NCBI GenBank assembly: GCA_016783445.1
Contig: JADHWO010000002.1
Span: 25,464-89,463, forward strand
Direction of reading: 5' to 3'
DNA length: 64,000 bases
Source of the DNA: Candidatus Aminicenantes bacterium
Lineage (GTDB): Bacteria; Acidobacteriota; Aminicenantia; Aminicenantales; Aminicenantaceae
Within the stretch, counting starts at the first letter, position 1. Every line of letters starts with the position of its first letter. Below the pieces are notes generated by a model that worked only from the letters and a program-made list of their open reading frames with translations, was not told the origin of the DNA and ran no database searches. The translations under genes were made by a program, and so were the position numbers. This document shows, piece after piece, positions 1 through 60,273 of the stretch.

Positions 1-426
1 ATCGATCTCCAGAAAGATGCTTCTATTAAACCACTGGGAACAGGTCAGGATTTGCTCTCACTTTTAGCAAGACCGGTACAAGGCCCTCCTCTCAGCGATG
101 CCAGGAGTGCTTCAGCTGATCTTTTTTTCGAGATTTCCAACAACGACAGGTTCTTCCGTATCGGTCAAAAAGTAAGCGTTTCGCTTTTACAGAAATCTCC
201 AGAGGATAGCCTTGTTGTGCCCATTTCAGCAATCCTGTATGACATCAACGGCGGGAGTTGGGTGTATACAAAAGTTGCTCCTCACGTCTACTCACGCCGT
301 CGTGTTGAAGTGAGCCATATCGTGAATGATTTTGTTGTTTTAGCTCGTGGTTTAAAAGTTGGTGATCAAGTGGTTGTCGCTGGAGCAGCTGAAATTTTTG
401 GAACTGAATTTGGAGTGGGAAAATGA
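1..426 (+). CDS. RND efflux membrane-fusion (periplasmic adaptor) protein, C-terminal part; the 5' end lies outside the window
   Basis: The frame is open from base 1. The C-terminal sequence is HlyD/MFP-like ([21 protein letters not shown]...). The stop overlaps the start of the downstream RND permease (ATGA at 423-426). Confidence 0.7.
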
Positions 427-3400
427 TGAAATGGCTCGTATCAACCTCTCTCCGTCTACGTGTGGCGATTGTAGTCCTTACAGTGGTCTTGCTAATTGCC
501 GGTTCGCATATTGTCAGCAGGGCTCGTTTCGATGTATTCCCGGAATTTGCGCCGCCTCTGGTTGAAGTCCAGACTGAAGTGCCCGGACTTTCAACATCCG
601 AAGTTGAAGTTTTAGTGACAGTGCCGATTGAGAATGCTCTTAATGGTGTCTCTTGGTTGCAGAAAGTGCGCTCAAAGTCTGTGCTTGGCCTCTCTTCCGT
701 TGTGCTTTATTTTGAAGAGGGCTCTGATTTAATGGAGGCACGACAGCTCGTCCAGGAACGTATAACTCAACTCGCGGAACGATTGCCGGCAGTGGCTAAA
801 GCACCGGTCATACTTTCTCCACTATCCTCCACCAGCCGCGTCCTGAAAATCGGTATGTCTTCAGAAAAACTGTCTCAAGTGGAAATGACGACTGTCGCCA
901 AGTGGACGATTCGCCCACGGCTTATGGCGATTCCTGGTGTAGCCAATGTCGCTATCTGGGGGCAGCGGGACCGCCAGATTCAAGTGCTCATTGATCCGAA
1001 CCATTTATACACCCATGAAGTAACTACAAACGACATTGTCCGCGCTGCTCAGGAAGCAGTACAAATCAGTAGCGGTGGATTTATTGATACACCGAATCAG
1101 AGACTTGCGATTGCTCATACACTGTCTGTTCAATCACCGGAAGATTTATCCCATGTGCCAGTTGCTATCCGTAACGGCGTGCCATTAGAATTGGGTGATC
1201 TGGCGGAACTCGTTGAAGGATTCCCACCTCCGATAGGGGATGCGGTGATAAACGATGGCCCCGGAATATTACTTATTGTGGAAAAGCAGCCCTGGGGGAA
1301 TACCCTTGAGGTGACGCAGAAAATTGAGGATGTTTTAGATGCGCTGCGTCCTGGCCTCAAAGATATAGAAATTGATTCTACAATATTTCGGCCAGCAACT
1401 TTTATCGAGATGTCGCTCAGCAATCTTAATCGTGCTTTGCTCATCGGATGTGTGTTGGTGATTGCAGTGCTGGCCTTCTTTCTCAACGACTGGCGCACTG
1501 CTTTGATCAGTGCTCTTGCGATCCCAACTTCACTGATTATTGCTGCACTCATATTGAACTATCGGGGTGGAACCATTAACACCATGGTTCTTGCCGGCCT
1601 TATAATTGCCCTTGGCGTGCTTGTAGATGATGCAATCATCGTTGTCGAGAATATCATGCGGCGTCTTCGAATCAATAAGACATCCGGAAATCCTGACTCG
1701 GTCTTTAAGGTTGTGCTCAACGCTTCTCTGGAAGTGCGGAGTGCGGTTATGTTTGGCAGCGTGATTGTTGTTCTTGTGCTTATGCCTGTGTTTTTCCTTC
1801 AAGGATTATCAGGTGCATTTTTCCGTCCCTTGGCGTTGTCCTGTGTTTTGGCTATATTATCTTCCTTGTTAGTAGCGTTGACCCTCACTCCGGCACTCTC
1901 TATGATGCTTTTGCCCCGGGCAGTAGAGCGCAAGCAATCTCCTTTCCTGTTGTGGCTTAAAACGAGATATGAGGCGATATTACCTAAATTGATAACCCAA
2001 CCGAGAAAAACTTTGGCTATTACAGCCAGTGCTCTTGTTCTAACTTTGGCGGTCATTCCTTTTCTGGGCGAAGAGTTCCTCCCTAATTTTAAAGAATATG
2101 ATTTTCTGATGCATTGGGTTGAAAAACCGGGTACATCTTTACAAGCAATGGAAAGGATCACTGTGCGTGTAAGCAAAGAACTTCGCTCTATCCCGGGGGT
2201 TCGGAATTTTGGAGCACATATCGGCCGGGCAGAAGTTTCTGATGAAGTTGTGGGTCCAAATTTTACAGAACTCTGGATCAGCCTCGATCAGGATGTAAAT
2301 TATGGAAAGATTGTAGGTAAAATTCAAGAAGTTGTTGACGGGTATCCAGGCTTATACCGCGATTTGCTGACTTATTTGCGTGAGCGGATTAAGGAGGTTT
2401 TAACAGGTACCGCCGCAACACTCGTTGTGCGCATTTACGGTGAAAATCTTGATATTCTACGCCAAAAAGCTGAGGAGGTGCGAGCCGCAATTGCTGAAAC
2501 AGAGGGAGTTATCGACTTAAAAGTACAACCGCAAATCATGGTACCGCAGGTGGAGGTGCATTTTCGCCCAGAAGCTGCTGTCCAGTTTGGATTAACAGCA
2601 GGCGAAGTCAGACGTGTGGTCACACTTTTGATGAAGGGAACTAAGGTTGGAGAATTTTATGAAGACCAGAACATATTTGATGTGGTTGTTTGGGGCGCCC
2701 AGCACATACGTTCCAACATAGAAACACTGCGTTCATTGAGAATAGAGACACCCACTGGGGGTTTGGTCCCCTTAAACGAAGTAGCAGATGTTTTTATAGC
2801 CCCGACTCCGAATCAAATTACGCGTGAGTCGGCATCTCGTTATACTGAGGTGACCTGCAATGTGCGAGGTCGCGACCTTGGAAGTGTTGCCCGGGAAATC
2901 GAGAGCAAAGTGCAGAAGATTCCCTTTGCTCGAGGTTATCATCCAGAGTTTTTAGGGGAATATGCTGCTCAGAGAGCATCCAGGCAGCGGATTTTAGCCC
3001 TCTCTGTTTTTGTACTCATCGGTATCTTTTTGATCCTGTACACAGATTTTGGGTCTTCCAGGCTGGCATTATTGGTCATTGCTGGATTGCCTTTTGCTTT
3101 AATCGGTGGTGTTCTTTCTGCCATTATAAGTGGGGGAGTGCTTTCACTTGGGTCTCTTATAGGATTTATTACAGTATTTGGTGTAGCTGCAAGAAATAGC
3201 ATTATGCTCATCAGTCATTATAAACATCTGCAGCTAAAAGAAGGTTATTCTTTTAGCATCGATTTGATTATACAGGGAGCCAAAGAGCGGCTTGCGCCTA
3301 TCTTAATGACGGCATTAACAACAGCTCTTGCACTTCTTCCAATCGTAATTGGAGGAAATCGCCCCGGACAGGAGATTGAACATCCCATGGCTTTGGTAAT

Positions 3401-3494
3401 TTTAGGAGGTTTAGTCAGTTCTACTTTGCTCAACTTGCTGGTGATGCCAATACTTTACTGGAAATTCGGACGAGTAAAAAAAATAAATGAATAA
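423..3494 (+). CDS. Heavy-metal-efflux RND permease, CusA/CzcA family
   Basis: 1023 aa. The N-terminus [21 protein letters not shown] is typical of CzcA/CusA. There are 12 predicted TM segments with two large periplasmic loops. It is translationally coupled to the upstream adaptor gene. Confidence 0.9.
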
Positions 3495-3549
3495 AAAAAC
3501 AAGAGAAGGAGGCGTTTCTCTATATTTTTAATATTGTGGGCTTGATTCA

Positions 3550-5261
3550 GAGGCTGTCTCAAAACTCAACATATAGTATAATATATTGTGTTACTGATTA
3601 ACATAGAAACAAGAGGAATGGGGAAGAGCAATGAGCAATGAGATAAAGGCAGATTATGATCAACAATATGTTTTACCTCCCTCATTAGAAGATTGGGTAC
3701 CTGAGGATCATCCGGTTAGATTCATAAGGATGTTTGTAGATTCAATGGATTTAGAGGGAATGGGATTTCGAGAGAGGGAGAGTGAAGAGGGGCGTCCGAA
3801 TTACTCAAATGATATGCTTTTAAAGATATGGTTACACGGTTATTTCGAGAAGATCTACAGTACGCGCAGCTTGGAGAAGGCCTGCAAAGTCCAGCTGCCT
3901 TTGATCTGGCTAACTGGGATGCACTACCCTGATCATAATACACTTTGGCGATTTTTCCGGAATAACCGCAAGGTGCTAAAAAAGGTATTTGTTCACTCTG
4001 TAAAGGTTGCCTTAAAGGGTGATCTGGTAGGTTTAGTTCTTCAGGCGATAGACGGCACAAAAATAGTTGCGGATGCTTCTCGGAGGCGTTCACTTCATTG
4101 GAAAAACCTAAAAGCTCTCTTAGGGAAGCTGGAAGAGTCATTAGATGATGTATTTGATGAGATAGAGGAGAACGAAGAGAAGGAGAGTTGTGATCCTGGA
4201 TATAAGCTTCCTTTGAGATTGCAAGATAAGGAGGAGCTTGAGAGATTTATAAGCGACGGCATAAAGGAGCTTTCCCAGGATGAGAAGAGATCCTTGAAGG
4301 AAGAAGTAGAGGAAGGCTTGGATGAATTAGCTGAGGGAGAGACAGAGCATTTAAATCTCACTGATAGTGAATCAAGGATGATGAAGAATGGGAGGCAGAT
4401 TGATTTTTGTTATAATGCGCAGGCTGTGATAGATGAGAAGAAGCAGGTTATTGTAGCAGCTTCAGTGACATCAGAGGGATTGGATAACCACCAGTTAACA
4501 GGGATGCTTGATGAGGCAAAGGAGAATACTGGGGGGATTCCAGAGGAGACGATAAGTGACAGCGGGTATTTTTCAGGGGAGGAACTTAAAAAAGCCGAGG
4601 AGAAAGGGTATTCCGTATTGGTAAATATTCCGGCAAATGTGGGCAGTTATCCTGCTAAAAAAGATGATTCATTCGGTAAGAAGAAATTTATTTATGACTC
4701 AGAGAAAAATGTATACATATGTCCGAAAGGCTGCAGCTTAATTTTTGAGAAAGAGAGTAAAAGGGAGAGATACAAGTCAAGGATTTATAGATGTAAGCAA
4801 GCAAAAGACTGTGCATTTCGTTTCCAATGCAGTAAGGATAAACGAGGAAGGTCAATAGAGAGAACACCATATGATGAATGTATTCTCAGGCAGGTCGAGA
4901 AACAAAAAGATGCAGGGAAGAAGGAATTGCTTAGTAGAAGGAAGAAGATCGCTGAGCCTGTATTCGGATGGATAAAAAGAAATAATAAATTTTCTAGATG
5001 GACCTTTAGAGGGCTAGGATCAGTAGATGCACAGTGGCAATTGCTGTGTACAACAGTGAATCTGAAGAAGCTCTTCAGTAGATGGGTAGATGGAGTCTAT
5101 GTATTTGCCCTTTAAATGAAGAATATACGAGACTTTTTAAGCTTTAAAAAAGAATTTATTTTATCCAGGCGATGATAATATCAAGTTTCCTCTCAAATAA
5201 TTATTTATCCCTCTATTTTGAATAAAAATGATGAATTATAAACAAATTATGAGACAGCCTC
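3550..5261 (+). mobile_element. Insertion sequence, IS5/IS1182 superfamily (IS1182-like), 1712 bp. It has a 12-bp perfect terminal IR and a 4-bp TTCA target-site duplication.
   Basis: The left IR is GAGGCTGTCTCA at 3550-3561 and the right IR is TGAGACAGCCTC at 5250-5261. TTCA occurs at 3546-3549 and 5262-5265. A single transposase ORF lies inside. The flanks rebuild the palindrome gggcttgattca|tcaagccc. Confidence 0.8.
3631..5115 (+). CDS. Transposase, IS5/IS1182 family, DDE type
   Basis: The N-terminus LPPSLEDWVPEDHPVRFI matches the InsH-N/DUF772-like domain of IS5/IS1182 transposases. The C-terminus is Cys-rich (CPKGC...CKQAKDC...FQC), as in IS1182-family transposases. Confidence 0.85.
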   Translation: MSNEIKADYDQQYVLPPSLEDWVPEDHPVRFIRMFVDSMDLEGMGFRERESEEGRPNYSNDMLLKIWLHGYFEKIYSTRSLEKACKVQLPLIWLTGMHYPDHNTLWRFFRNNRKVLKKVFVHSVKVALKGDLVGLVLQAIDGTKIVADASRRRSLHWKNLKALLGKLEESLDDVFDEIEENEEKESCDPGYKLPLRLQDKEELERFISDGIKELSQDEKRSLKEEVEEGLDELAEGETEHLNLTDSESRMMKNGRQIDFCYNAQAVIDEKKQVIVAASVTSEGLDNHQLTGMLDEAKENTGGIPEETISDSGYFSGEELKKAEEKGYSVLVNIPANVGSYPAKKDDSFGKKKFIYDSEKNVYICPKGCSLIFEKESKRERYKSRIYRCKQAKDCAFRFQCSKDKRGRSIERTPYDECILRQVEKQKDAGKKELLSRRKKIAEPVFGWIKRNNKFSRWTFRGLGSVDAQWQLLCTTVNLKKLFSRWVDGVYVFAL

Positions 5262-5387
5262 TTCATCAAGCCCCTACGTGAAAAACAGGATTGCCGCGGC
5301 TCTTCGGACTCGTTATGACATTTGATAAAATGGGGCCTGTCCCTATAACTTATCCCTATTATTATGAGAAGGATCCCTGAGTATAAA

Positions 5388-8300
5388 TTAGATATTGGAG
5401 TTTTTGAAACCAAGGAAGGACTTGACCCTGGAAGTTACGGAATCCGAGATAGAATAGAATGTGGGCAAAAAGATCAGCGTGAAAAAGGTTGATGTGGTCA
5501 GCCCGCCGATGATTGCCACAGAAATGGGTGCCCACATCTGTGCCCTACGCCCCACTGCCTCAAAAAATTGGGGCAGCAAAAAGGGGAGAGCCAGCGGCAG
5601 TACTCCAAAAATGGTGGTAATGGCTGTCATAACGATCGGCCGCATCCTGTCCTTGCCTCCCTGCACGATGGACTCATTCTTGCCCATCCCGGATTTACGC
5701 AGTATCCGGATGTGGTCGATGAGGATGATGCCATTGTTCACTACAATCCCGAATAGAACCAGAAGTCCCAGATAGGAGGTTGTATTTAGTGTAATGTTCG
5801 TTATAGAGAAGAGGATAGCTACTCCAAACAATGCCAGAGGCACTGTCATCAAGATCGTTAACGGATGCACAAAAGACTCAAAAAGCGAAGCCATGATGAT
5901 ATAGATAAAAATAAGAGCGAGAATAATCGCAAGGCCGGACTCCCCCTGGGATTCCTGGAAACGCCTCCACCCGGATCCAAGGCTCCATGAGTAACCGTCA
6001 GGGAATTGAATTGTGTTCATGACCCTGCCGATGTCGTTGGATATGCCCATCATCCCCTGGGATTTGGTGTTGATCCGGATCATCAATTTTGATTGTTTAT
6101 TCTCCTTACGGATAGAGGTTGATCCCATCCTGTAAGTGATGTTTGATACTGCGGAGACTGGAATCCTTGTGGACTGGGTTGGAAGGCTGATATTCCGGAG
6201 GTCTTCTTCAGAGAACCCGTCCTCTCTCCGGATCTTTAAGATGATATCGATCTCCCGGTTTTCAGTTTTAAATTTTCCGATGGGCCGTTCAGATAGAGAA
6301 GAGGAAATAGTCCGTGCAACCATTTGACTGCTTACTCCTGAGCTTTCTGCTTTCTGACGGTCTACCTCGACCATGATTTGTGTGTCTCCACCCTCCAGAT
6401 CACTTGTTACATCCTCCACATTCTCGACTGTCCGTAGCTTTTCGATAACCATTGGAGCAAGCTCGGTCAGTTTAGTGTAGTCGAGGCCGATGAGTTCCAC
6501 TGTGATTCCTCTGTGGTGCCCGCCACGGCCAAAACGTTGCGCGTATTCGTAGGTAATACCGGCTTGTATGGGCAGCAGTTCTTTGAGTCTTTCTTTAATC
6601 TCGGTCACCGACATTCCTTTATCTTCCAGAGCCAACTCAAGTCCCCCGCTGAATCGTCCCTGCCGCATGCGCCTCACACCGAACTCTGTCGTTAGATATT
6701 TGATAGATAGCTCTTCCTTCCGGGACAAGAGTATTTCCTCGTAGTTCTTGAAGAGGACTTTCATTTGTTCCAGAGTAAAACTGCGGGGCATATAGACTGA
6801 GATATCGATCTCCCGCTCGTCACTGGTAGCCATATATTCCTGTTCGATGTTTTTGAAGATCTGGAATGAAGTAAAAAAGATTCCAACAGCCAGACCAACC
6901 ACGAAAAGCTTGGTTTTCCAGTTCTTGATAGTGAAACTAATGATACGCTCATAGACAGCCGTTAGTTTTACCAGCCAGCGGGCTTTTTCCTTTGCTTTGC
7001 CGGCAAGCAGTCGACTTCCAGCCAGAGGGATGAACGAGAGGGAAACGATCAGAGAGGCGATTAACGCCAGGGAGATGGTTAATGCAAAGTCTTTTAAGAA
7101 GCGGCCGAATCCAGACTGGGACATGAAGCTTAACGAGATGAACACAACCAGAGTTGTTAAAGTTGAGGCAGTGACAGCCATAGCTACTTCACTTGCTCCT
7201 GTTATGGAGGCCTTTAGCGGGGAGTATTGTTTTTCCTGCCGAAGCCGGAAGATATTCTCCAGGACCACAACACTGTTATCCACAAGCATTCCCACAGCCA
7301 TCATCAGTCCGCTGAGAGAAATGATGTTGATAGTGATGTCCGCACTAAATACAGTACGGTAGAGGTACATGAGGCTGAAGGTGAACACTATAGCCATGGG
7401 GATGGCGATGGCGATGATGATGGTGCTCCGGAATTTTCTCAGGAAGAAGAGCAGGACGAAAACAGCCATAAGGCCGCCGATAATGCCGGAAATAGTAAGG
7501 TCTTTGAGGCTCCTGAGGATGTCTTCCGACTGATCTCGGTAGAAAATAACATTCATATTCTGGAGCTCGGGTTCCGTCTCCTTGATGCTTGCCATAATGT
7601 CTTTGACGTTGTTGCATACATCCACGATATTAGCATTAGATGCACGGTAGATCTGGAAACGTACGGTTTCATTCCCGTCCAGGCGGTTGAATTCCTCTTT
7701 GACAGGATAATCGTAAGTCACTCGAGCGACATCGGCAATGGTCAGTCCTTTGTTGCTGACAGGAAGGCTTTTTACATCTTCCAGGATCTTGAGTTCTCCT
7801 GGAACGCGAGCCACATAGCGCATGGGGCCCTCTTCTACGTACCCGGCTGAAATATTTATGTTGTTGTTGCGTATGGTGCTGATCAGGTCGGTTATGCGGA
7901 TGGAGGATGAATAGAAAACCTCGGGCTTAAGGTAAATGGTCAGAACTTTGTTGCGGATCCCACGGATATCAACGTTGGCCACTCCTTGAATCCGTTCCAG
8001 TTGCTGTGTGATGTAGTTTTCCGACCAGTAATACAGGTTATCCAGGTCTCCGGGTAAAGCTAAGCTGAAGTTGATCACAGGCCGGTCATTAAATGAAAAA
8101 CGGCGGATGCGGATATTCTCGATGTCGTCAGGAAGGTCATTACGGACGAGGTCGATCTTGTCACGGATCTCCATAGTGACCAGATCCATGTTGGTCCCTC
8201 CCTTGAACTGCATGTGGATGTTCGAGGACGATGAGGAGGAAGTGGAGCTGAGGCTTTCCAGATTGTTTATTGTGGCCAGTACGTCTTCCAGGGGCCTTGT

Positions 8301-8489
8301 GATAATGCGTTCCACCTCTTCTGGAGAAGAAGAAGGGTAGGGGATCTGTACCATGAGTCCGGGGAAAGATGTGTCAGGCATCATTTCCAGGGGAAGTTTA
8401 AGGATTGATATCACCCCGATGGTGATAAAGATGAGCATGGCTACAATGATAGAAACCGGTTTTTTTATGGCAAATTCAGGTAGATTCAT
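5388..8489 (-). CDS. RND multidrug efflux permease (HAE1 family), distal paralog of a tandem pair, MdtC-like
   Basis: 1033 aa with AcrB-like topology. It starts MNLPEFAIKKPVS. There is a 4-bp overlap with the upstream RND gene. Confidence 0.9.
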   Translation of the reverse strand: MNLPEFAIKKPVSIIVAMLIFITIGVISILKLPLEMMPDTSFPGLMVQIPYPSSSPEEVERIITRPLEDVLATINNLESLSSTSSSSSSNIHMQFKGGTNMDLVTMEIRDKIDLVRNDLPDDIENIRIRRFSFNDRPVINFSLALPGDLDNLYYWSENYITQQLERIQGVANVDIRGIRNKVLTIYLKPEVFYSSSIRITDLISTIRNNNINISAGYVEEGPMRYVARVPGELKILEDVKSLPVSNKGLTIADVARVTYDYPVKEEFNRLDGNETVRFQIYRASNANIVDVCNNVKDIMASIKETEPELQNMNVIFYRDQSEDILRSLKDLTISGIIGGLMAVFVLLFFLRKFRSTIIIAIAIPMAIVFTFSLMYLYRTVFSADITINIISLSGLMMAVGMLVDNSVVVLENIFRLRQEKQYSPLKASITGASEVAMAVTASTLTTLVVFISLSFMSQSGFGRFLKDFALTISLALIASLIVSLSFIPLAGSRLLAGKAKEKARWLVKLTAVYERIISFTIKNWKTKLFVVGLAVGIFFTSFQIFKNIEQEYMATSDEREIDISVYMPRSFTLEQMKVLFKNYEEILLSRKEELSIKYLTTEFGVRRMRQGRFSGGLELALEDKGMSVTEIKERLKELLPIQAGITYEYAQRFGRGGHHRGITVELIGLDYTKLTELAPMVIEKLRTVENVEDVTSDLEGGDTQIMVEVDRQKAESSGVSSQMVARTISSSLSERPIGKFKTENREIDIILKIRREDGFSEEDLRNISLPTQSTRIPVSAVSNITYRMGSTSIRKENKQSKLMIRINTKSQGMMGISNDIGRVMNTIQFPDGYSWSLGSGWRRFQESQGESGLAIILALIFIYIIMASLFESFVHPLTILMTVPLALFGVAILFSITNITLNTTSYLGLLVLFGIVVNNGIILIDHIRILRKSGMGKNESIVQGGKDRMRPIVMTAITTIFGVLPLALPFLLPQFFEAVGRRAQMWAPISVAIIGGLTTSTFFTLIFLPTFYSISDSVTSRVKSFLGFKNSNI

Positions 8490-12909: not shown

Positions 12910-13218
12910 GGTTATTCACCTAAATTATAATCAGTTCATTTCTTCTTGCCGAACGCTTGCTGTATCCGGGTCGATTATTCCGGCTGCTTTCCGAACGGTC
13001 TCGTTTCCTGCGTTATTCGTTTTAATTCGCAGAAACACACTTGTAACGATTCATAAATATTAGACGAAAAAATAAACAATTTCTTCCAAAACTTTCAATA
13101 ATTTCTATATAATTTCTGCAATTCCTATATAACTAAAATTTCAATTTAACTATATATAATATTCTATTCTGCCTCCTGGCACAAGTTGGATTATTTTTGC
13201 GAGGAACATAGAAAATTA

Positions 13219-13388
13219 CCGCGTTGCGCTCGCAATGAGCCACGTAATCTCTTTTTACGTAGGGGCTTGATTCATCTGTAGAGGTTTGATTTATCTGTAG
13301 GGATTTGATTTATCAAACCCACAATTTTTAAATAGATAATTTTCAATCGAATAATCATTTAACGGATTTGAAAAATCAAGCCCCTACA
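13219..13388. repeat. Cluster of REP-like palindromes. One family-2 unit sits at 13219-13251. Three family-1 units and a partner half sit at 13258-13388.
   Basis: The sequence is gtaggggcttgattcatctgtagaggtttgatttatctgtagggatttgatttatcaaaccc ... aaaaatcaagcccctac. Confidence 0.6.
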
Positions 13389-13883: not shown

Positions 13884-16022
13884 ATGAAGTTTCAAACTTT
13901 TAAGGTTTGCGGGCTGGTCTTTGCCTTTTTGATTGGCTCTGCCTTTTTAGGCTCGTCCGGTTCCGCTTTCGCCTCACAGAAGGTTCCCATCAGCTTTAAC
14001 GATTACCATGGGTATACCGGCACTGTGAAGTACATTAAGAGTGTGGCAAAGGCCTACCCAAACATAAGCAAGCTGATCGAGATCGGCAAGAGCAACATGG
14101 AGAGGCCGATTTATGTTCTTGTAATCTCAAACATGAAAACAGGAACAACAATCGACACTTTTGTGGAATTGCGCAATAAACGTAAGGAGGGAGTCAAGAA
14201 TGTTCCTCCCATGAAGGCGTATCAGGGCAAGCCAGGACACTGGATCTGCGGGAGCACACATGGAAATGAGTATACCGGAACAGAGGTTTGTTTATACATC
14301 ATCGATAAACTGGTCTCAGGGTATGGTTCGGACAAGGAAGTCACCCGGCTTGTTGATGGCCAGACATTCTACGTTTGCCCTGTCGTTAATCCTGACGGTT
14401 TGTATAACAGCATTGAGAAGGGAATATCCCAGAGGCAGAACAGCATGAAAAAAGACGACGACGGAGATGGAAAAGTTAATGAAGACGGCTATGACGACCT
14501 CAACGGCGATGGGCACATCACTCGATTTCGCTACAAAGACCCGAATGGCAGGTATGTGATTGATGATGTTGATCCGCGTTTGATGGTCCGTCTTGGCAGA
14601 AATGCTAAAACAGATAAACAGCTGTATTCAATCATCAGGGAAGATAGGGACAATGATGGTGATGGTGAACGCGGGGAAGACTCTGAAAGAGGCATCGATT
14701 TAAATCGGAATTTTCCGGAAGGATGGTGGGAAACTGATGGAATGGCGGGTGGCCAGGGAAATTACCCGACATCAGCCCCTGAAATCCATGCAATTGCCGA
14801 GTTCTTCACCAACCATACAAATATCCTGATGGCACAGAATTATCATACATCCGGCGGATTTACCTACAGACCGCTGGGGACTGCTCCTCCCAATCAGCTG
14901 CATCCAAAAGACGTTGCAATATTCGACATGATCATGGGAAAAAAATACCTCGAAATTATAGGAGAGGAGGTTCCTGAAGCATGGAAAGCGCCTGGTTCCC
15001 TTGCCAGATTCAAAGAAGAGCTTGAGAAAAAATCTAAAAATAAGTATGCCATAGCACGAGGATATGAATTGCCGCGTGGTTGGAGAGCCAGCTATAACGA
15101 AGCCAGGGACCGGCGATACGGCTATGGAATGGCATCAGACTGGATGTACATGCAGTTCGGTGCATATGCCATAACCACCGAGCTCTGGAACCCTCAAAAA
15201 GACATAAAGGATTTCCCTCAGTTTACCGGACCTGACGCCAGAATAGAAGCGCAACGTGCCCTTTTAAAATACCAGGATGAAAAATACGGCGGAAAACTTT
15301 TTATCCCATGGAAAAAGTTCGAACATCCTGAACTGGGAGAAGGTGAAATTGGTGGCTGGATACCAAAATACCGAAGTAATGCTTTGCCGGGTGAACCTCT
15401 GCTCAACGTCTGCGAAAAGCACTGGCAGTTCGAGCTTTTTAGAGCAGGACTCCAACCAGAAATCGTGATCACCGATGCCAAAGCTCGTGTGCTGTATACA
15501 GCAAATAAAGCAAATAGTGCAGTCGTGTCTCAGAAGGGCGATTTAGTGTCAATTAAAAAAGGAAAATCAAAAGGAAAATACAAAATTGTTGAAGTCACTG
15601 CAGTAATCGAAAACAAAGGAAAACTTGCTACCCATATTGCCCGGGGAGCAGAGCTTGCAGGAAACCGTGAGGACATTGTTTGGCTGATCGGAGACAGAGA
15701 TAAAATCACTCACCTGCAGGGCACAAAATTCCAGAAACTGGGTGTTATCGAGGGAACACAAGAAATCCCCGGATATGCAGGCAGACCCGGTGCTGGATCA
15801 GCAGGACAACAGCGGATGCAGAGAATGCCTCGCCTTATACCGCCAGGCTATCCTATGTTTTTCAGGATGCGGGGAGCGAGATTCGAGCCAACGCAGGTTA
15901 AGCAAACAGGTCCAAAACGTGAAGTTAGATGGCTTATCGCAGTGGAAGGAAACACGCCGCTTAAAGTTGTAGTAACATCTCAAAAAGGCGGAACAAAGGT
16001 TAAAAACCTTTTGATTCAATAA
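13884..16022 (+). CDS. Secreted M14 zinc carboxypeptidase with an acidic Ca-binding D-x-D-G repeat insert
   Basis: There is a signal peptide, the HGNE (HxxE) zinc motif, and DLNRNF. The insert DDDGDGKVNEDGYDDLNGDGH is thrombospondin-type-3-like. An RBS (aggaggg) is present. Confidence 0.85.
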   Translation: MKFQTFKVCGLVFAFLIGSAFLGSSGSAFASQKVPISFNDYHGYTGTVKYIKSVAKAYPNISKLIEIGKSNMERPIYVLVISNMKTGTTIDTFVELRNKRKEGVKNVPPMKAYQGKPGHWICGSTHGNEYTGTEVCLYIIDKLVSGYGSDKEVTRLVDGQTFYVCPVVNPDGLYNSIEKGISQRQNSMKKDDDGDGKVNEDGYDDLNGDGHITRFRYKDPNGRYVIDDVDPRLMVRLGRNAKTDKQLYSIIREDRDNDGDGERGEDSERGIDLNRNFPEGWWETDGMAGGQGNYPTSAPEIHAIAEFFTNHTNILMAQNYHTSGGFTYRPLGTAPPNQLHPKDVAIFDMIMGKKYLEIIGEEVPEAWKAPGSLARFKEELEKKSKNKYAIARGYELPRGWRASYNEARDRRYGYGMASDWMYMQFGAYAITTELWNPQKDIKDFPQFTGPDARIEAQRALLKYQDEKYGGKLFIPWKKFEHPELGEGEIGGWIPKYRSNALPGEPLLNVCEKHWQFELFRAGLQPEIVITDAKARVLYTANKANSAVVSQKGDLVSIKKGKSKGKYKIVEVTAVIENKGKLATHIARGAELAGNREDIVWLIGDRDKITHLQGTKFQKLGVIEGTQEIPGYAGRPGAGSAGQQRMQRMPRLIPPGYPMFFRMRGARFEPTQVKQTGPKREVRWLIAVEGNTPLKVVVTSQKGGTKVKNLLIQ

Positions 16023-16036
16023 GATGGGGGTGCACT

Positions 16037-17923
16037 ATGAAATCGAAAAATAATTTTAAATACATATTGGGTTTGGCACTGACTGTCTTACTGGTGGCAT
16101 CCTTTACGGTTCCAGCATTTGGACAGAAAAAACTGCAGAAAAACCCAGCCGGGTACCACGGTGAACTCGACTTTCCCATTAGCTGGAAGCGGTATTATTC
16201 CTATGCGGAATGGACAAAGATTATGCACGATATCCAGAAGAAGTATTCTCACCTGGCAGACATCGAAAGCATCGGCAAGAGCCGGATGGGGCGCGACCAG
16301 TACCTGATAACCATCACCGCAAAATCGACAGGAAAACATCAAGACAAGCCTGCGATGTGGGTCGATGGAGCAATACATGGAAATGAGGTAAACGGGATTA
16401 CATGCTCTATGTACCTTATGTGGTATTTACTAACGAGGTATGATTACGACAAATACATCTTTGACCTGGTAAACGACTGCACATTTTATATTCTGCCTGG
16501 TCTCAATGTGGATGCCAATGAATCCTTTGTCTCATTTCCAAATACGCCTAACAATCCGCGTGAACCGTACAGACCCGAAGATAACGACGGTGACGGGCTT
16601 TACGATGAAGACCAGACAGAAGATGTTGACGGCGACGGAGAGCTCTCTGTTATGTACATTGAGGATCCCAAAGGTGCGTACAAGTTATCACCTGACAAGC
16701 GTCAGTTTATTCGGTTAACTGATATAAAAGAAGAGGGCTTGCGGTTTCGCCGAATCGGCTCAGAAGGGTATGACAATGACGGCGACGGCATGATCAATGA
16801 AGATGATATTGGCGGCCCAGATCCGAATAGAAATTTTCCATATGGATGGAATCTTCAGGCGGGAAATCCCTATCCCATGTCAGAACCGGAATGTCGCAAT
16901 GTGTTCGAATTTCAGATTGCTCATCCTAATATTTTTGCCAGTTTTCACTATCACAATACCGGGAGGCTGATCATGTTCCAGGCACCGCCAGCAGTAAGAG
17001 CTCCAGCCCAAACAACAGGACAAAGCCAGCGTATGCAGGAGATGATCAATCAGCGCCTGGAGGAAATGCGAAAGGCCAATAAATACGCACAGTATTTTGA
17101 CCGCCAGGTTGCTCAAGAATATCAACATGACATGGATACACAAACAGAAATCGTTACGATGGGTGCGCGTATTATGAAAAACTACCGCCCCACCATCGGA
17201 GGCCTCAGCGGCCAGGCACATGCAGCAACATATTATATGCTCGGAGCGTATAGCTACCTTATCGAACTATGGGGATCGCCTGCATTTGATGCAGATGTGG
17301 ATGGTGATGGGAGAGTCTCTGATGAAGAATACCTTAAGTGGATTGATATTGAGCTGACTGGGGAAGGTTGGATTTTGCCGCACAAATGTAATCATCCCGA
17401 TCTTGGAGAAATCTGGATCGGCGGCACACGTAAAAAACACACACAGAGAACACCCCCTGCCCGGTATATAGAAATGGAAGCCTTTAAAAATGCTCAATTC
17501 GTGATGTACTGTGCCAGTCAGTTTCCTAAAGTGGAAATAGATGAATTGACCATAACTCCTGCAACGCAGGACCTTTACTGGGTCGAGGCGGCGGTAAGGA
17601 ATGACCGGATTTATCCCACCATTTCGGACAGATCAATACAGCTGAAGAGAGGGGAGAAGGATAAAATCACACTCAAATCGTCGGATAATATATCCCTGGT
17701 TAATATTCCTGAAGGCAAGACAATGGTTGATCCTTTTAATTACGAAACACAATATGAAACGATCACCGAGAAAGGAACTGAATTCAGGCTCAAAGGGAAA
17801 GAAACGCTCCACTTCTGTGCTCTGGTAAAAATGGATGGATCTCAAGGCTGGGTGGAAGTGAATGTCAAATCACAGCACGGCGGTACAGCCAAGAAGAAAA
17901 TTAACATTAAAGTAGGTAAATAA
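16037..17923 (+). CDS. Secreted M14 zinc carboxypeptidase, a paralog of the upstream gene
   Basis: It has AIHGNEVNG, DPNRNFPYGW and D-x-D-G repeats (DNDGDGLYDEDQTEDVDGDGE). The C-terminal domain resembles that of 13884-16022. Confidence 0.85.
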   Translation: MKSKNNFKYILGLALTVLLVASFTVPAFGQKKLQKNPAGYHGELDFPISWKRYYSYAEWTKIMHDIQKKYSHLADIESIGKSRMGRDQYLITITAKSTGKHQDKPAMWVDGAIHGNEVNGITCSMYLMWYLLTRYDYDKYIFDLVNDCTFYILPGLNVDANESFVSFPNTPNNPREPYRPEDNDGDGLYDEDQTEDVDGDGELSVMYIEDPKGAYKLSPDKRQFIRLTDIKEEGLRFRRIGSEGYDNDGDGMINEDDIGGPDPNRNFPYGWNLQAGNPYPMSEPECRNVFEFQIAHPNIFASFHYHNTGRLIMFQAPPAVRAPAQTTGQSQRMQEMINQRLEEMRKANKYAQYFDRQVAQEYQHDMDTQTEIVTMGARIMKNYRPTIGGLSGQAHAATYYMLGAYSYLIELWGSPAFDADVDGDGRVSDEEYLKWIDIELTGEGWILPHKCNHPDLGEIWIGGTRKKHTQRTPPARYIEMEAFKNAQFVMYCASQFPKVEIDELTITPATQDLYWVEAAVRNDRIYPTISDRSIQLKRGEKDKITLKSSDNISLVNIPEGKTMVDPFNYETQYETITEKGTEFRLKGKETLHFCALVKMDGSQGWVEVNVKSQHGGTAKKKINIKVGK

Positions 17924-17952
17924 AAGCAAAAAAAAGGGAACTGGTTTTTTGC

Positions 17953-18152
17953 CGTAGGGATTTGATTAAATTGCAGGGATTTGATTCATCATACCCGTTA
18001 ATTCTGAATTTGTAGGAGCTTGATTTATCAAGCCCACTTTATTGTTTTGCAGGGATTTGATTCATCAAACCCGTTGATTTTTAAAAAAGGGAATTGGCCT
18101 CAATTTCTTTCTTTTTCTGTCATTGCAAGGAACGAAGTGACGCGGCAATCTC
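17953..18152. repeat. Cluster of four family-1 REP-like palindromes plus one family-2 unit
   Basis: The family-1 units are gtagggatttgattaaattgcaggg, atttgattcatcataccc, gtaggagcttgatttatcaagccc and gcagggatttgattcatcaaaccc. The family-2 unit is tcattgcaaggaacgaagtgacgcggcaatctc at 18119-18152. Confidence 0.6.
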
Positions 18153-18238
18153 TTATCAAAATCTAGGTATTTTTGTCGACTCAGTAGGGCAATAACTCAG
18201 ATAAATCTGTTATTATATATAAACTCAAGGAGGTAGAC

Positions 18239-20494
18239 ATGAAACGGCTTTCCATCTTTCTGGTGTTACTGTTTATGTTTTTTGCCTGTTCATCGCAGCA
18301 AGGGCAGGAAAGGGACCCATCAATTCTTACTCTGGAGCGCATCTTTAGTTCTCAAGAATTCGCTTCCGAACGCTTTGGACCGGCACGATGGTTAAAAGAT
18401 AAAAGTGCTTACACAACTCTTGAAGACTCAAGGTCAAAAAAAGGTGCTCGTGATATAGTTCTATACGATGCAGAAACAGGCACACGAGAAATCCTGGTGT
18501 CCGCCAAAAAGCTCATCCCGAAAGGCGAGTCAAGACCTCTCTCCATTTCCAATTATGACTGGTCTTCGGACGCAAAGAAACTCCTCATCTTTACAAACAC
18601 AAAACGTGTCTGGCGGCAGAATACACGGGGAGACTACTGGGTTATTGATTTAAACGACGGGAATCTGCATAAGCTTGGGGGAGATGTGGAGCCTTCATCG
18701 CTCATGTTCGCCAAGTTTTCCCCGGATGGGAGCAAAGTAGCGTATGTTATCAGGAATAACATCTATGTAGAGGACCTGAGAAGTCATCAGATAAAGCAGC
18801 TGACAAAGGATGGCTCAGAGACCATCATCAATGGAACCTTTGACTGGGTCTATGAGGAGGAATTTTCGCTCAGGGACGGCTTTCGCTGGAGCCCGGATAG
18901 TAAATGGATAGCTTACTGGCAGCTTGATGCAGAAGGGGTGAAGACTTTTTATCTTATCAACAATACTGACCAGCTTTACCCAGAGCTCATCCCGGTCCAG
19001 TATCCGAAGGCAGGGGAGACCAACTCTTCGAGCCGTATTGGAGTGGTGAGTGCAAAGGGAGGGGAGACTTGCTGGATTGAGCTGCAAGGTGACCCGAGAA
19101 ACCATTACATTGCCAGAATGGATTGGGCAGCAAATTCGGAGGAGATTATTTTCCAGCGCCTTAACCGCCTTCAGAATACAAACTGGGTGAAACTTGGTGA
19201 TATTCGCACCGGAGAGGCGCGCACGATTCTGACCGAACGCGATAAGGCCTGGCTGGAAGTGGAGAATGACATGCGCTGGCTGGATGATGGAAAACAATTC
19301 GTTTGGATTAGCGAGCGGGATGGCTGGAGGCATATTTATCTTGTCTCGCGGGATGGGAAAAAAGTTAAGAATTTAACTCCCGGGGAATATGATATAGTCA
19401 GCCTGCAGAGCATTGACGAAAAGAGAGGCTGGATTTATTTTATCTCTTCCCCAGATAATCCGACACAACGCTATCTTGTCCGGGTGGGATTGGACGGTTC
19501 AGGAAAAACTGAACGTGTCTCTCCCCTGGACCAGACCGGATCACACAGCTACCGGATTTCCGAAAACTCCGGCTGGGCTTTTCACACTTTTTCCTCCTCT
19601 GGTGAACCGCCTGTGACTGAGCTTGTGCGCTTGCCTGAACATGATGTGACGCGTACATTAGTGGATAACTCAAAGCTCCGGGAGAAAGTTAAGACTATTA
19701 AAAAGAGCCCTGTTGAGTTTTTCCGGGTGGATATCGGTGGTGGTGTGGAACTTGATGGGTGGTGTTTGAAACCGCCTGATTTTGATCCAACAAAGCGCTA
19801 TCCTGTGCTTTTTTATGTCTATGGTGAGCCGTGGGGGTCTACTGTTGTTAATAGATGGGGTGGAAACAGCTATTTGTGGTATCTTATGTTGTGCCAGCAG
19901 GGCTATCTGGTGATGAGCGTGGATAATCGAGGGACAAGAGTGCCTCGTGGACGGGCATGGCGGAAGTGTATTTACCGGCAGATAGGGATTCTTGCCTCTG
20001 CTGACCAGGCTGCAGCATTACAGGCTATAGTCAAACGCTGGCCCTGGGTGGATTCAAACCGCATCGGGATCTGGGGCTGGAGTGGAGGAGGGTCCATGAG
20101 CCTCAATGCCATATTCAGATACCCGGACCTCTATCATACAGCCATGGCTGTAGCTTTTGTAAGCAACCAGCAATATTATGATACGATCTATCAAGAGAGG
20201 TACATGGGGCTTCCAGAAAAAAATAAGAAAGGTTACAGGAACGGTTCTCCCATCACTTATGCCCATCAATTAAAAGGGAACCTGCTTCTTGTTCACGGGA
20301 CAGGGGATGATAATGTCCATTACCAGAATTTTGAGGCACTGGTGAATGAGTTGATCGAACACAACAAGCATTTCACGATGATGGCCTATCCAAACAGGTC
20401 ACATGGGATTTATGAAGGGGAGAATACGACACGCCATCTGTATGAGCTCCTGACAAGATATTTAAAAGAGAACCTGCCGTCCGGCGGGATTTAA
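18239..20494 (+). CDS. Dipeptidyl-peptidase IV-type prolyl oligopeptidase (S9B), secreted
   Basis: It has a DPPIV N-terminal beta-propeller and an S9 alpha/beta hydrolase domain. The nucleophile motif is GWSGGGSMS, followed by a downstream Asp and His. There is a signal peptide and a strong RBS. Confidence 0.9.
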   Translation: MKRLSIFLVLLFMFFACSSQQGQERDPSILTLERIFSSQEFASERFGPARWLKDKSAYTTLEDSRSKKGARDIVLYDAETGTREILVSAKKLIPKGESRPLSISNYDWSSDAKKLLIFTNTKRVWRQNTRGDYWVIDLNDGNLHKLGGDVEPSSLMFAKFSPDGSKVAYVIRNNIYVEDLRSHQIKQLTKDGSETIINGTFDWVYEEEFSLRDGFRWSPDSKWIAYWQLDAEGVKTFYLINNTDQLYPELIPVQYPKAGETNSSSRIGVVSAKGGETCWIELQGDPRNHYIARMDWAANSEEIIFQRLNRLQNTNWVKLGDIRTGEARTILTERDKAWLEVENDMRWLDDGKQFVWISERDGWRHIYLVSRDGKKVKNLTPGEYDIVSLQSIDEKRGWIYFISSPDNPTQRYLVRVGLDGSGKTERVSPLDQTGSHSYRISENSGWAFHTFSSSGEPPVTELVRLPEHDVTRTLVDNSKLREKVKTIKKSPVEFFRVDIGGGVELDGWCLKPPDFDPTKRYPVLFYVYGEPWGSTVVNRWGGNSYLWYLMLCQQGYLVMSVDNRGTRVPRGRAWRKCIYRQIGILASADQAAALQAIVKRWPWVDSNRIGIWGWSGGGSMSLNAIFRYPDLYHTAMAVAFVSNQQYYDTIYQERYMGLPEKNKKGYRNGSPITYAHQLKGNLLLVHGTGDDNVHYQNFEALVNELIEHNKHFTMMAYPNRSHGIYEGENTTRHLYELLTRYLKENLPSGGI

Positions 20495-20507: not shown

Positions 20508-20618
20508 GGGGTCGCGTCTCAACACTTGACATTACAGAAAGAAGTGAGACTGCCGCACTTTGTTCGCAATGACAATAATTAGTGAGATTGCCACGTCACT
20601 GCGTTCCTCGCAATGACA
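20508..20618. repeat. Repeat cluster with one copy of the 26-bp motif (inverted) and two tandem family-2 units
   Basis: The 26-bp motif is ggggtcgcgtctcaacacttgacattac. The family-2 units are gagactgccgcactttgttcgcaatgacaat and gagattgccacgtcactgcgttcctcgcaatgacaat. Confidence 0.6.
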
Positions 20619-20641
20619 ATATAAATTGGGGCCTGTCCCCA

Positions 20642-36521: not shown

Positions 36522-36758
36522 GCATTATTCATAAAAACTGCCGATGCCATCATTCATTCTTTATAATATCTATATCAATCATCGGCATTTTTTACTCTTC
36601 GAGCGAGCCGATATTGTGAGATTGCCGCGTCGCTTCGCTCCTCGCAACGACGTCTGCTTCGTTGCAAAGGATTTGCGGTGGAGAACCACAGCTTCATCCT
36701 TCACGCCTCGCATCTACGGCAACCTCGACTCGTGAATAATGCACGTACGCGTGAATTG
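36522..36758 (-). repeat. Copy B (inverted) of the roughly 250-bp structured repeat. Its internal hairpin plus T-run is placed as a terminator for the upstream gene.
   Basis: The reverse complement aligns to 13583-13834 and 47160-47425. aaaaactgccgatg...catcggcatttttt lies directly after the stop at 36500. Confidence 0.7.
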
Positions 36759-57269: not shown

Positions 57270-57445
57270 CACCTCTTTTTTCCTGAATATGTTAAAAATT
57301 TTATCATTTTCCTGTAGAGCAAAACTTATAACAGAGGAATGAATTGTTGTCAAAATGAAAAAAATAACTTTAAGTAATAAAAATCGCCATTTTCAGATTA
57401 ACTTATAACCTCAGGTTATTTTTATATTTTTGTACTATCCTTGTG

Positions 57446-57650
57446 GAGAGTAAAGCGGTGCGGCAATCTTATAGTTTTCTGTAGGAGCTTGATTCATCAA
57501 ACCCATCTTTGTATTGGGGATTTGGTTTAAATGTAGGTAACATGATGATGTGATGCACCTCCACTGGGATTTGATTCATCAAACCCACAATAGGAAAAGG
57601 ATAGAATAAAATGTTTTTGCCAGGAGCATAACGACGCGGCAATCTCACCT
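57446..57650. repeat. REP cluster with two family-2 units flanking two family-1 palindromes
   Basis: The units are gcggtgcggcaatctta, gtaggagcttgattcatcaaaccc, gggatttgattcatcaaacccac and acgacgcggcaatctcac. Confidence 0.55.
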
Positions 57651-58477: not shown

Positions 58478-60064
58478 ATGAGTAATAAGACAAAAAGATC
58501 TTCTGGAAAAAGCTCGTTTTTCAGGGAGAGAGATATATTTAAGATAAAGGCTGTTTGGATTATTGTGATTTTACTCCTAGTTGGTTTTGTATTTGGAAGC
58601 ATGGGAGTTCCGGAAGAAGGAAAAGACTTAAAAATTGCTGTAGCTATGTTTTCCCACGAGACATGCACTTTCTGTCCCAGGCCAACTACTATAAAAGACT
58701 GGGAATACTACGGTCCACCCACCCGTGATATTCTCGGTTTAGACAGAGGATACATCGGTGGCTTTAAAAACATGTGTGAGGAGTATGGAGGTATAAAGCT
58801 TGTTGGTATCCTTTCTCCCCGCGGAGCCCGGGGTGGTTCTTCAGGAAGCTGGATTACAAAGGAAGCCTTTGATAAGTACACAACCCTTATTGCCGGAGAC
58901 CTCAAACAGGCTGGCCCTTTTGATGGCGTTTTTCTTTCTCTTCATGGTGCCATGGCTGTGACAGGAGTGCCTAAACCTGAGGCTGAGATAGTCCGACGGG
59001 TACGCAAGGTAGTTGGGGATATCCCGATTATGGTTTCGCTTGACCTCCATGCCAACGAAGACCATGAACTCTCTGATGCTGCGGATGCGGTCTTCATCAT
59101 CAAGAGATATCCTCACTATGATACAAATCTAATAGGGGAATATGCAGGGAGAGTCATGATCAAGACTATCCGTGGTAAGTATAAACCAACCATGGCAACT
59201 CGAAAACCCGGTGTCATTACCCCTAGTGTTTTTCAGGGAACAGGAGTTTCCCCGGCTATGGACATCATGGAGAGAGCCCGGAGATGGGAGTGTCAGTATA
59301 GTGATGTCTATGTCTCGGTAGCGTTTGGTTTTGCTTATGCGGATGTACCGGATGTTGGAGCAACTGTAATGGTGGTTACCAATAATAATCAGGGGCTTGC
59401 AGACATGATTGCTGATGATATGTCCGGTTATATCTGGAGAGTAAGAAAAGAATTTGCAGGAAAAAAGCTGCCCAAAACAAAAAAAGGAGTGGCCTTGGCC
59501 ATCGGAGCTGCCAGAGCTGGAAAGACGCCTGTTGTCATTGCTGACCACAGCGACAGGACAGGCGGTTCCACGTATATCCTTGAGGAACTTATAAGACAGG
59601 GAGCTGAGAATTTCTGTATAGCCACTCTGCGCGATGAGAAAGCTCTTGAAGAGATTAAGGCTAAGGTAAAAGTAGGGGACACAATCAGCATCGATTTAGG
59701 TGGATATTCAGACAAATTTGCGGGAAATCCCGTCAGGATAAATGGTAAAGTTGAGTTTCTTGGTAATTATGGCAGAGGGACAGTGGCTGTGCTTGTATTC
59801 GGGAAAAACAACAGGGTCATCCTTACTCCACAGCTCATGCAGGTTACAACTCCTCGTATTTTTAGGCCTCTTGGTATTAAACTTGAGAGCCTGGATATAA
59901 TCGTACTCAAGTCCCGTGTCCATTTCAGGAGAGGATTCCATGAGACCGGACTGGCAGGAGCAATATTCGAAGTTGATGCACCTGGCTGGGGTCCTGCTGA
60001 CCTGACTCTACTTCCTTATAAAAATATCCCCAAAGATATCTATCCGATATATAAAAAAAATTGA
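58478..60064 (+). CDS. M81-family metallopeptidase (MlrC/microcystinase-like, DUF1485 + MlrC_C), membrane-anchored
   Basis: KIAVAMFSHETCTFCP is typical of the DUF1485 start. The protein is 528 aa. Confidence 0.75.
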   Translation: MSNKTKRSSGKSSFFRERDIFKIKAVWIIVILLLVGFVFGSMGVPEEGKDLKIAVAMFSHETCTFCPRPTTIKDWEYYGPPTRDILGLDRGYIGGFKNMCEEYGGIKLVGILSPRGARGGSSGSWITKEAFDKYTTLIAGDLKQAGPFDGVFLSLHGAMAVTGVPKPEAEIVRRVRKVVGDIPIMVSLDLHANEDHELSDAADAVFIIKRYPHYDTNLIGEYAGRVMIKTIRGKYKPTMATRKPGVITPSVFQGTGVSPAMDIMERARRWECQYSDVYVSVAFGFAYADVPDVGATVMVVTNNNQGLADMIADDMSGYIWRVRKEFAGKKLPKTKKGVALAIGAARAGKTPVVIADHSDRTGGSTYILEELIRQGAENFCIATLRDEKALEEIKAKVKVGDTISIDLGGYSDKFAGNPVRINGKVEFLGNYGRGTVAVLVFGKNNRVILTPQLMQVTTPRIFRPLGIKLESLDIIVLKSRVHFRRGFHETGLAGAIFEVDAPGWGPADLTLLPYKNIPKDIYPIYKKN

Positions 60065-60127: not shown

Positions 60128-60273
60128 GAGGGCTTGATAAATCAAGCCTCTACATGAAAGAATAATATGAGATTGCTGTGTTTCGCTTGTAAAAACAAAA
60201 CAAATTGTGAGATTGCCACGCTTCGCTCGCAACAGGCTATGTAATCTCATTGCGAGCGAAGCGTGGCAATCTT
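60128..60273. repeat. One family-1 palindrome plus a perfect 24-bp inverted repeat of family 2 that forms a long hairpin
   Basis: The palindrome is gagggcttgataaatcaagcctctac. The inverted repeat is gagattgccacgcttcgctcgcaa (60209-60232) and ttgcgagcgaagcgtggcaatctt (60250-60273). Confidence 0.6.

Follow-up and report, generated by a model that had tools for sequence, protein, structure and literature searches.

Repetitive extragenic palindromic (REP) sequences are defined as imperfect palindromes with a conserved 5' GTAG, which occur in REP/iREP clusters (PMC3333891), and insertion sequences (IS) specific to them have been documented in the IS3, IS110, IS4, IS256 and IS5 families (PMC1525189). 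As far as the account in PMC1525189 extends, IS1397 and ISKpn1 of the IS3 family target the palindromic units/bacterial interspersed mosaic elements (BIMEs) of enterobacteria, the specificity residing in the transposase. All copies of IS621, ISPpu9, ISPpu10 and ISPa11 of the IS110 family lie in host REPs (PMC1525189 Table; PMC12288879), and elements of this type rely on a DEDD recombinase, for which a bridge/seek RNA is the guide (PMC11208160, PMC11187229). In the IS1182 family, IS1272/TnSha1 of staphylococci inserts in hairpins, a part of which it reportedly deletes or replaces, with neither a duplication nor a preference for any sequence (PMC4923244, PMC5678879); Furi et al. cite the 2015 review by Siguier for palindrome targeting by some IS1182 members. 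In the set of papers searched on IS1182 and extragenic palindromes, no IS1182 element was described as targeting REPs. The present analysis concerns an IS1182-family element of 1712 bp in a 64,000-bp stretch of a Candidatus Aminicenantes genome (contig JADHWO010000002.1, positions 25,464 to 89,463; hereafter the window). The element, which occupies positions 3550-5261 on the + strand, lies at the centre of a REP-like palindrome, and the evidence from its sequence makes it very probable that this recently mobile, intact element targets one family of host REP-like repeats by a dyad-centred, 4-bp-staggered DDE integration.

The insertion site can be read directly against its empty allele. The element is preceded by the left arm of the palindrome (gtgggcttga, 3536-3545) and TTCA (3546-3549), and followed by a second TTCA (5262-5265) and the right arm with CTAC, which is the GTAG head of the minus strand (5266-5277). 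Excision of 3550-5261 together with one TTCA restores gtgggcttgaTTCAtcaagcccctac, i.e. gtgggcttga-TTCA-tcaagcccctac, which reads GTAGGGGCTTGA-TGAA-TCAAGCCCAC on the opposite strand. The same locus without the element is present in five assemblies of the same Candidatus Aminicenantes population, namely the NCBI metagenome-assembled genome (MAG) GCA_049643465.1 (L134; L numbers refer to individual assembled sequences) and four Logan runs (L135-L137, L139), which were found by look-up of the exact neighbouring resistance-nodulation-division (RND) protein. All five match the restored sequence with 0 mismatches in 196 bp, carry a single TTCA and have the two RND genes 177 bp apart; the two arms are contiguous at 6115-6140 of L134. 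Nothing was deleted at insertion, and the gain relative to the empty allele is 1712 bp plus the 4 bp of TTCA. The lack of any difference between the flanks and the empty allele marks the insertion as recent, and as the IS-free allele holds an intact palindrome, the palindrome is older than the IS and represents the host target, not a part of the element. Folding of the restored site as single-stranded DNA predicts an 8-bp stem with a TTCA tetraloop (−8.2 kcal mol−1, z = −4.1), which places the duplicated 4 bp in the loop and the insertion point at the dyad. The TTCA duplication and the reconstruction of a palindrome by excision, both proposed in a sequence-only reading of this DNA, are thus borne out by the empty alleles. 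That reading had placed the element in its palindrome at 3538-5273; the central position stands, while the full palindrome (3536-3549 and 5262-5277) is 2-4 nt wider.

The assignment of the element to IS1182, which had been suggested (as IS5/IS1182-like) before any database search, is supported by several lines of evidence. The only long open reading frame (ORF) between the IS ends (3631-5115, + strand) encodes a transposase of 494 amino acids with the Pfam domains DUF772 at the N-terminus, DDE_Tnp_1 as the core and DDE_Tnp_1_6 at the C-terminus. It matches the IS1182 equivalog model NF033551 at 367.3 bits (cutoff 270), with residues 8-482 aligned to positions 3-486 of the 488 in the model. The identical protein MBL7082143.1, from a Candidatus Aminicenantes MAG, is labelled by NCBI as an IS1182 family transposase. 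Members of the family measure about 1.3-1.95 kb and carry terminal inverted repeats (IRs), and both properties are found here: a repeat search returned a perfect 12-bp pair, GAGGCTGTCTCA at the left end (3550-3561, + strand) and its counterpart at the right end (5250-5261, minus strand; TGAGACAGCCTC on the + strand), and the window holds no third perfect copy of GAGGCTGTCTCA. D141, D310 and E442 are invariant in an alignment of the transposase with ten homologues, down to 30% identity, and are the candidate catalytic triad; C364, C394 and C400, located between the second D and the E, are also invariant among these 11 sequences. The transposase looks intact, as judged from the near end-to-end model match and the invariant D, D and E residues, and units of the same IS with exactly 1712 bp were recovered from many assemblies.

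A different parse of the boundaries, in which an element of 1714 bp has IRs of 13 bp (A...T) and duplicates only the 2 bp TC, also fits the window and a unitig in which the element is flanked as 'a+IS+t' (L005). It is disfavoured by the GTCT duplication of a relative (L019), in which the outer bases are non-complementary, and by the variation among relatives of the base before the IR; the sequences thus favour 1712 bp with a 4-bp duplication.

The palindrome that received the element belongs to a family dispersed over the window. The pattern GGGCTTGATNNATCAAGCCC, with up to 3 mismatches, matches 7 times as against 0.03 expected, and a scan with a 24-mer consensus gave 10 matches, corresponding to 9 distinct units (one palindromic unit scores on both strands), as against 0-1 in shuffled sequences. 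The consensus of the target family is GTAGGRGCTTGA-TNNA-TCAARCCC(AC). The unoccupied copies lie, as the sequence-only reading had listed, at four places: a cluster of tandem half-units, one full unit and one inverted unit (13259-13387), a cluster of three full units and a partial one on the + strand (17955-18072, with the 24-mer matches at 17973-18072), a cluster of two units on the + strand (57481-57586) and a single unit on the minus strand (60130-60153). The term REP-like is also apt, as the units are repeated, intergenic, imperfect palindromes with a GTAG or close-variant head 5' of the palindrome, and they occur in both orientations and in tandem half-unit arrays. In head, imperfect palindrome, extragenic location, copy number and clustering in both orientations, they resemble the REPs/BIMEs mobilised by REP-associated tyrosine transposases (RAYTs; PMC3333891), while at ~24-28 nt they are shorter than the 30-40 nt REPs of E. 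coli; a scan of small ORFs of the window revealed no RAYT (Y1 TnpA_REP) gene.

Two further features of the repeats were recorded. Tandem left half-units (GTAGGGGCTTGATTCATCT GTAGAGGTTTGATTTATCT GTAGGGATTTGATTTATCAAACCC) lie at 13259-13320 and 17955-17996, and their sequence suggests that the half-unit arrays reflect slippage or partial duplication within the REP family. A second interspersed repeat of ~34 nt (consensus GAGATTGCCGCGTCRCTTCGYTCCTCGCAATGAC, ~10 copies in the window) is found at 5287-5322, 18109-18152, 20584-20620, 36618-36655, 57427-57470, 57603-57646 and 60209-60273, with weaker copies at 13215-13245 and 60169-60200; it mostly adjoins the REP clusters, forming BIME-like mosaics.

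Direct evidence for target choice comes from other copies of the element, read from contigs with an identical transposase, variants at least 97% identical and relatives 78-87% identical (L001, L128-L133, L141-L158). Transposases at least 97% identical occupy at least 7 distinct sites (6 left flanks and 7 right flanks), and the relatives of 78-87% identity add 5 further sites. Together, transposases of 78-100% identity account for at least 12 independent sites, and each of these is at the central dyad of the same REP family. The comparison had been named beforehand as the refuting test of the sequence-only reading, whose interpretation, that the IS targets a host REP, it supports. The flanks obey the rule ...TTGA+T[TGA][CAT]A | IS | T[TGA][CAT]A+TCAA... 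without exception, the 4-mers abutting the IS ends being TTCA, TGAA or TTTA/TAAA. The left and right 4-mers are equal in the window, in the short contigs L129 and L130, and in a site recovered independently in a 9.3-kb Logan contig and a 16-kb NCBI MAG contig (L141/L142), where the IS lies between a PhoH-like and an ATP-sulfurylase gene. The GTAG heads are found on either side of the IS among the copies, indicating insertion in both orientations. A fixed position within the REP in all copies and an uninterrupted REP at the empty site, two features of the functional class of REP-targeting elements (Tobes and Pareja, 2006), are both observed.

It may be argued that the element has no target preference, and that insertions are merely seen where they survive, in harmless intergenic repeats; the REPs are indeed extragenic, and insertions elsewhere could be purged. 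Such a survival bias offers no explanation for the nucleotide-exact placement at the dyad in every copy, nor for the lack of insertions across the remaining intergenic DNA, and the insertion in the window is a recent one, as shown by its flanks. This explanation is hardly credible.

More distant relatives were collected by a metagenome scan for the IR core and by look-ups of more distant homologues, while a scan of a genome collection (species representatives) gave two distant relatives only. In relatives with 28-59% identity, the IR core is the same or a one-base variant, and the flanks, though unrelated in sequence, are palindromic with the IS at the dyad. A duplication of 4 bp (in one case 5 bp), corresponding to the loop, is usually present. 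Thus, CGAG lies at the IS between GCCC and GGGC in L006, GTCT between CCTCCTC and GAGGAGG in L019, and AACAT between GGTCCGGGAT and ATCCCGGACC in L087; CTTG is duplicated in L168. The element P0013 has CTTG between GTAGGGACAGGG and CCCTGTCCCTAC, another GTAG-headed REP. For the element P0030, the site is probably GTCAAAT, AAAG and ATTTGAC, pieced together from the left flank in L162/L164 and the right flank in L159/L161/L163, as no single contig carries both. P0013 and P0030 each reuse one palindrome family. Flank stems of at least 5 bp are found in 9 of the 11 lineages, as against 1.8% of random positions (p ~1e-14). A complete record, plasmid 2 of Variovorax sp. RA8 (NZ_LR594663.1), carries at least five IS1182 copies, and the five in the 148 kb covered of the 429-kb record are all arranged as GGCC|IS|GGCC (L182, 10185-13071; L183, 28589-30234, 35875-37558 and 37950-39633; L176, 515-2165). 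Their IR core, GAG[GC]CTGTGTGAAAAC, is related, and 3 of the 5 lie inside longer palindromic repeats containing CTGTACAGCCG. At one site, the right flank of L169 equals the left flank of L166/L167, with the same REP copy and unique flank at opposite IS ends; since the copy lies at the left end in two assemblies and at the right end in the third, the IS is in opposite orientations at this site in different samples.

These comparisons also bear on the explanation that the palindrome halves belong to the element, the true IRs being ~24 bp long and the unoccupied palindromes representing excision footprints or IS-derived miniature inverted-repeat transposable elements. The flanks of many copies are mutually inverted right up to the IS ends, this same property is acknowledged to leave the IR length uncertain in the IS1182 family (PMC5678879, models A and B), and GAGGCTGTCTCA and the REP arm GGGCTTGATTCA agree at 7 of 12 positions in the window. 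The palindrome is nevertheless intact in IS-free alleles that are otherwise identical in sequence, and all copies have the same 12-bp IR next to arms that differ from one copy to another, as the REP family itself does (GGGCTTGA, GGATTTGA, GGGTTTGA, GGTCTTGA, GGACTTGA; AAGCCC, AAACCC, AATCCC). Assembly unitigs branch and end beyond the IS, at a distance of 12 nt in L004 and of 1 nt in L005, which fits many copies sharing the whole arm or only its outermost base. Moreover, distant relatives retain the IR next to unrelated palindromes, and REP units with GTAG heads form tandem half-unit arrays without any IS sequence. Incorporation of the palindrome in the element is, therefore, very improbable. 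The partial likeness of GAGGCTGTCTCA to the REP arm was also considered as mimicry of the target by the IR; it was dismissed and taken as chance, the likeness in P0013, L019 and L076 being to the opposite arm only or absent.

An explanation closer to the behaviour of IS1272 is that the transposase reads secondary structure only, accepting any hairpin or cruciform, and hits REPs as the commonest hairpins. IS1272 targets hairpins without sequence similarity (PMC4923244, PMC5678879), and the targets across the wider clade, as seen above, are unrelated in sequence and all palindromic, with the loop as the duplication. Among the perfect palindromes with a 4-nt loop in the restored window, however, the REP family accounts for 7 of 97 at stem lengths of at least 5 bp, 3 of 29 at 6 bp or more and 2 of 10 at 7 bp or more, and is thus a 7-20% minority among palindromes of matched geometry. 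Choice by geometry alone would place 12 of 12 insertions in this family with p at most 4e-9. Some occupied REPs with imperfect stems (e.g. GGATTTGA/TCAAGCCC) still keep TTGA-N4-TCAA. The occurrence of all 12 sites in a minority family, together with the retention of this motif in imperfect stems, indicates that this element targets a specific repeat and not any hairpin. The reuse of one palindrome family by P0013 and by P0030 also speaks against recognition of structure only, which is considered unlikely.

In the preferred explanation, the element would select REP-like palindromes of one family, and a 4-bp staggered cut at the dyad axis would duplicate the 4 bp of the loop and leave both arms intact. 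A two-fold symmetric transposase complex may read both half-sites (at the least TTGA ... TCAA) as well as the site's symmetry, and would not accept hairpins in general, the target being either duplex DNA or an extruded hairpin/cruciform. Landing in an extragenic REP is presumably harmless to the host, which would explain the multi-copy persistence of the element.

Several observations weigh against this explanation or against parts of it. The hosts of all the close copies share the same REP family, and sequence and structure are thus not fully separable. Most of the additional copies come from short-read metagenome contigs, in which a collapsed multi-copy IS makes the pairing of left and right flanks unreliable. 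The two 4-mers are unequal in eight short contigs of the window clade (L131-L133, L146, L151, L153, L157, L163). In L076, L092, L110, L166, L131 and L018, one 4-mer is the reverse complement of the other and not its direct repeat, and the palindrome extends without a break to the IS, over as many as 18 bp in L166. The simplest cause would be the collapse of repeats during assembly, or recombination between IS copies by which flanks from REPs with opposite loop orientations were joined; a real mode of insertion without duplication, as claimed for IS1272, may also be behind these cases. Lastly, the element P0107 (48% identity, IR GAGACTGTCTCAAAA, L170-L175) duplicates GTAG between two hairpins, not at a dyad.

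A broader proposal can be put forward tentatively, as a possibility with less than even chances. A large, mostly uncultured IS1182 clade with the end GAGGCTGTCTCAAAA might follow a single rule, by which integration takes place at the tip of a hairpin/cruciform with a 4-bp stagger duplicating the loop, each lineage being retuned to the REP-like sequence that is repeated in its host. Inverted 4-mers would then be no artefact of assembly but the result of a genuine second, structure-dependent mode of insertion or flipping. If true, the clade would form a natural series in which the recognition of DNA symmetry or structure by a DDE transposase could be studied, and its behaviour would be linked to the duplication-free behaviour of IS1272.

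When compared with the described systems, the element shares with IS1272/TnSha1 the transposase family, the use of inverted-repeat/hairpin targets, which are often intergenic or terminators, and insertion in both orientations (PMC4923244, PMC5678879). In IS1272, however, the stem is reportedly cut and a part of the hairpin deleted or replaced with no duplication, whereas in the window, as compared with the empty site, the arms are intact and the 4-nt loop is what was duplicated; likewise, IS1272 is reported to show no primary-sequence preference and its targets are dissimilar, whereas the window clade is found at TTGA-TNNA-TCAA in one repeat family. Hairpin targeting in IS1182 is evidently compatible with an ordinary 4-bp duplication and with sequence specificity, unlike in the deletion-making IS1272. 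IS1397 and ISKpn1 enter the palindrome at its variable centre, where they duplicate 3-4 bp, and are, like the present element, DDE insertion sequences specific to host REPs; they differ in belonging to the IS3 family, with two frames and programmed frameshifting, and their ends and REP sequences are unrelated to those of the window. The IS110-family elements resemble it in that every copy occupies host REPs. They are without terminal IRs or a DDE-type staggered duplication, in contrast to the DDE enzyme, the IRs and the 4-bp target-site duplication of the window element; neither a structured RNA (Rfam) nor a tRNA was found in or near the IS.

The genes around the insertion agree with the placement of the IS between two convergent RND efflux operons, as had been proposed, both neighbours giving ACR_tran matches. 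On the left, an RND efflux permease (423-3494, + strand) is the last gene of an operon with OEP and membrane-fusion genes upstream; on the right, another (5388-8489, minus strand) ends the convergent operon, with a second ACR_tran gene and a HlyD-type membrane-fusion gene upstream. An RND protein of the window is identical to MBL7082142.1 of NCBI, from a Candidatus Aminicenantes MAG. A role for the REP as an intrinsic terminator of these convergent genes was considered and dropped, as there is no T-run on either side. In L001/L138 (ERZ24794666 NODE_64608), the left flank and the IS are as in the window and the right flank is different (ttcatcaagcccgcgttataaaag..., followed by a 259-aa ORF), so that the contig is either a chimera assembled across the repeat or the product of a true rearrangement involving two copies of the IS. 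Genes for secreted-type peptidases lie at 13884-20494 and 58478-60064, comprising two M14 carboxypeptidases, a DPP IV/S9 peptidase and an M81/MlrC peptidase.

The finding joins two known themes, palindrome targeting by IS1182 and REP targeting, and departs from IS1272 on two tested points, namely duplication without deletion and the use of one repeat family. General knowledge of transposition is unchanged by what is a fairly ordinary case, and IS1182 joins the families with REP-specific members. Many 1.7-kb contig breaks and chimeric joins of these assemblies are explained by copies of the element. Future insertions can be predicted to fall in the unoccupied REPs, and the insertion polymorphism offers a strain marker for Aminicenantes populations. 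Documented by both filled and empty alleles and by numerous independent sites, the element provides, in a host phylum known only from metagenomes, a clear example of a DDE insertion sequence for which the REPs of the host serve as safe landing sites.

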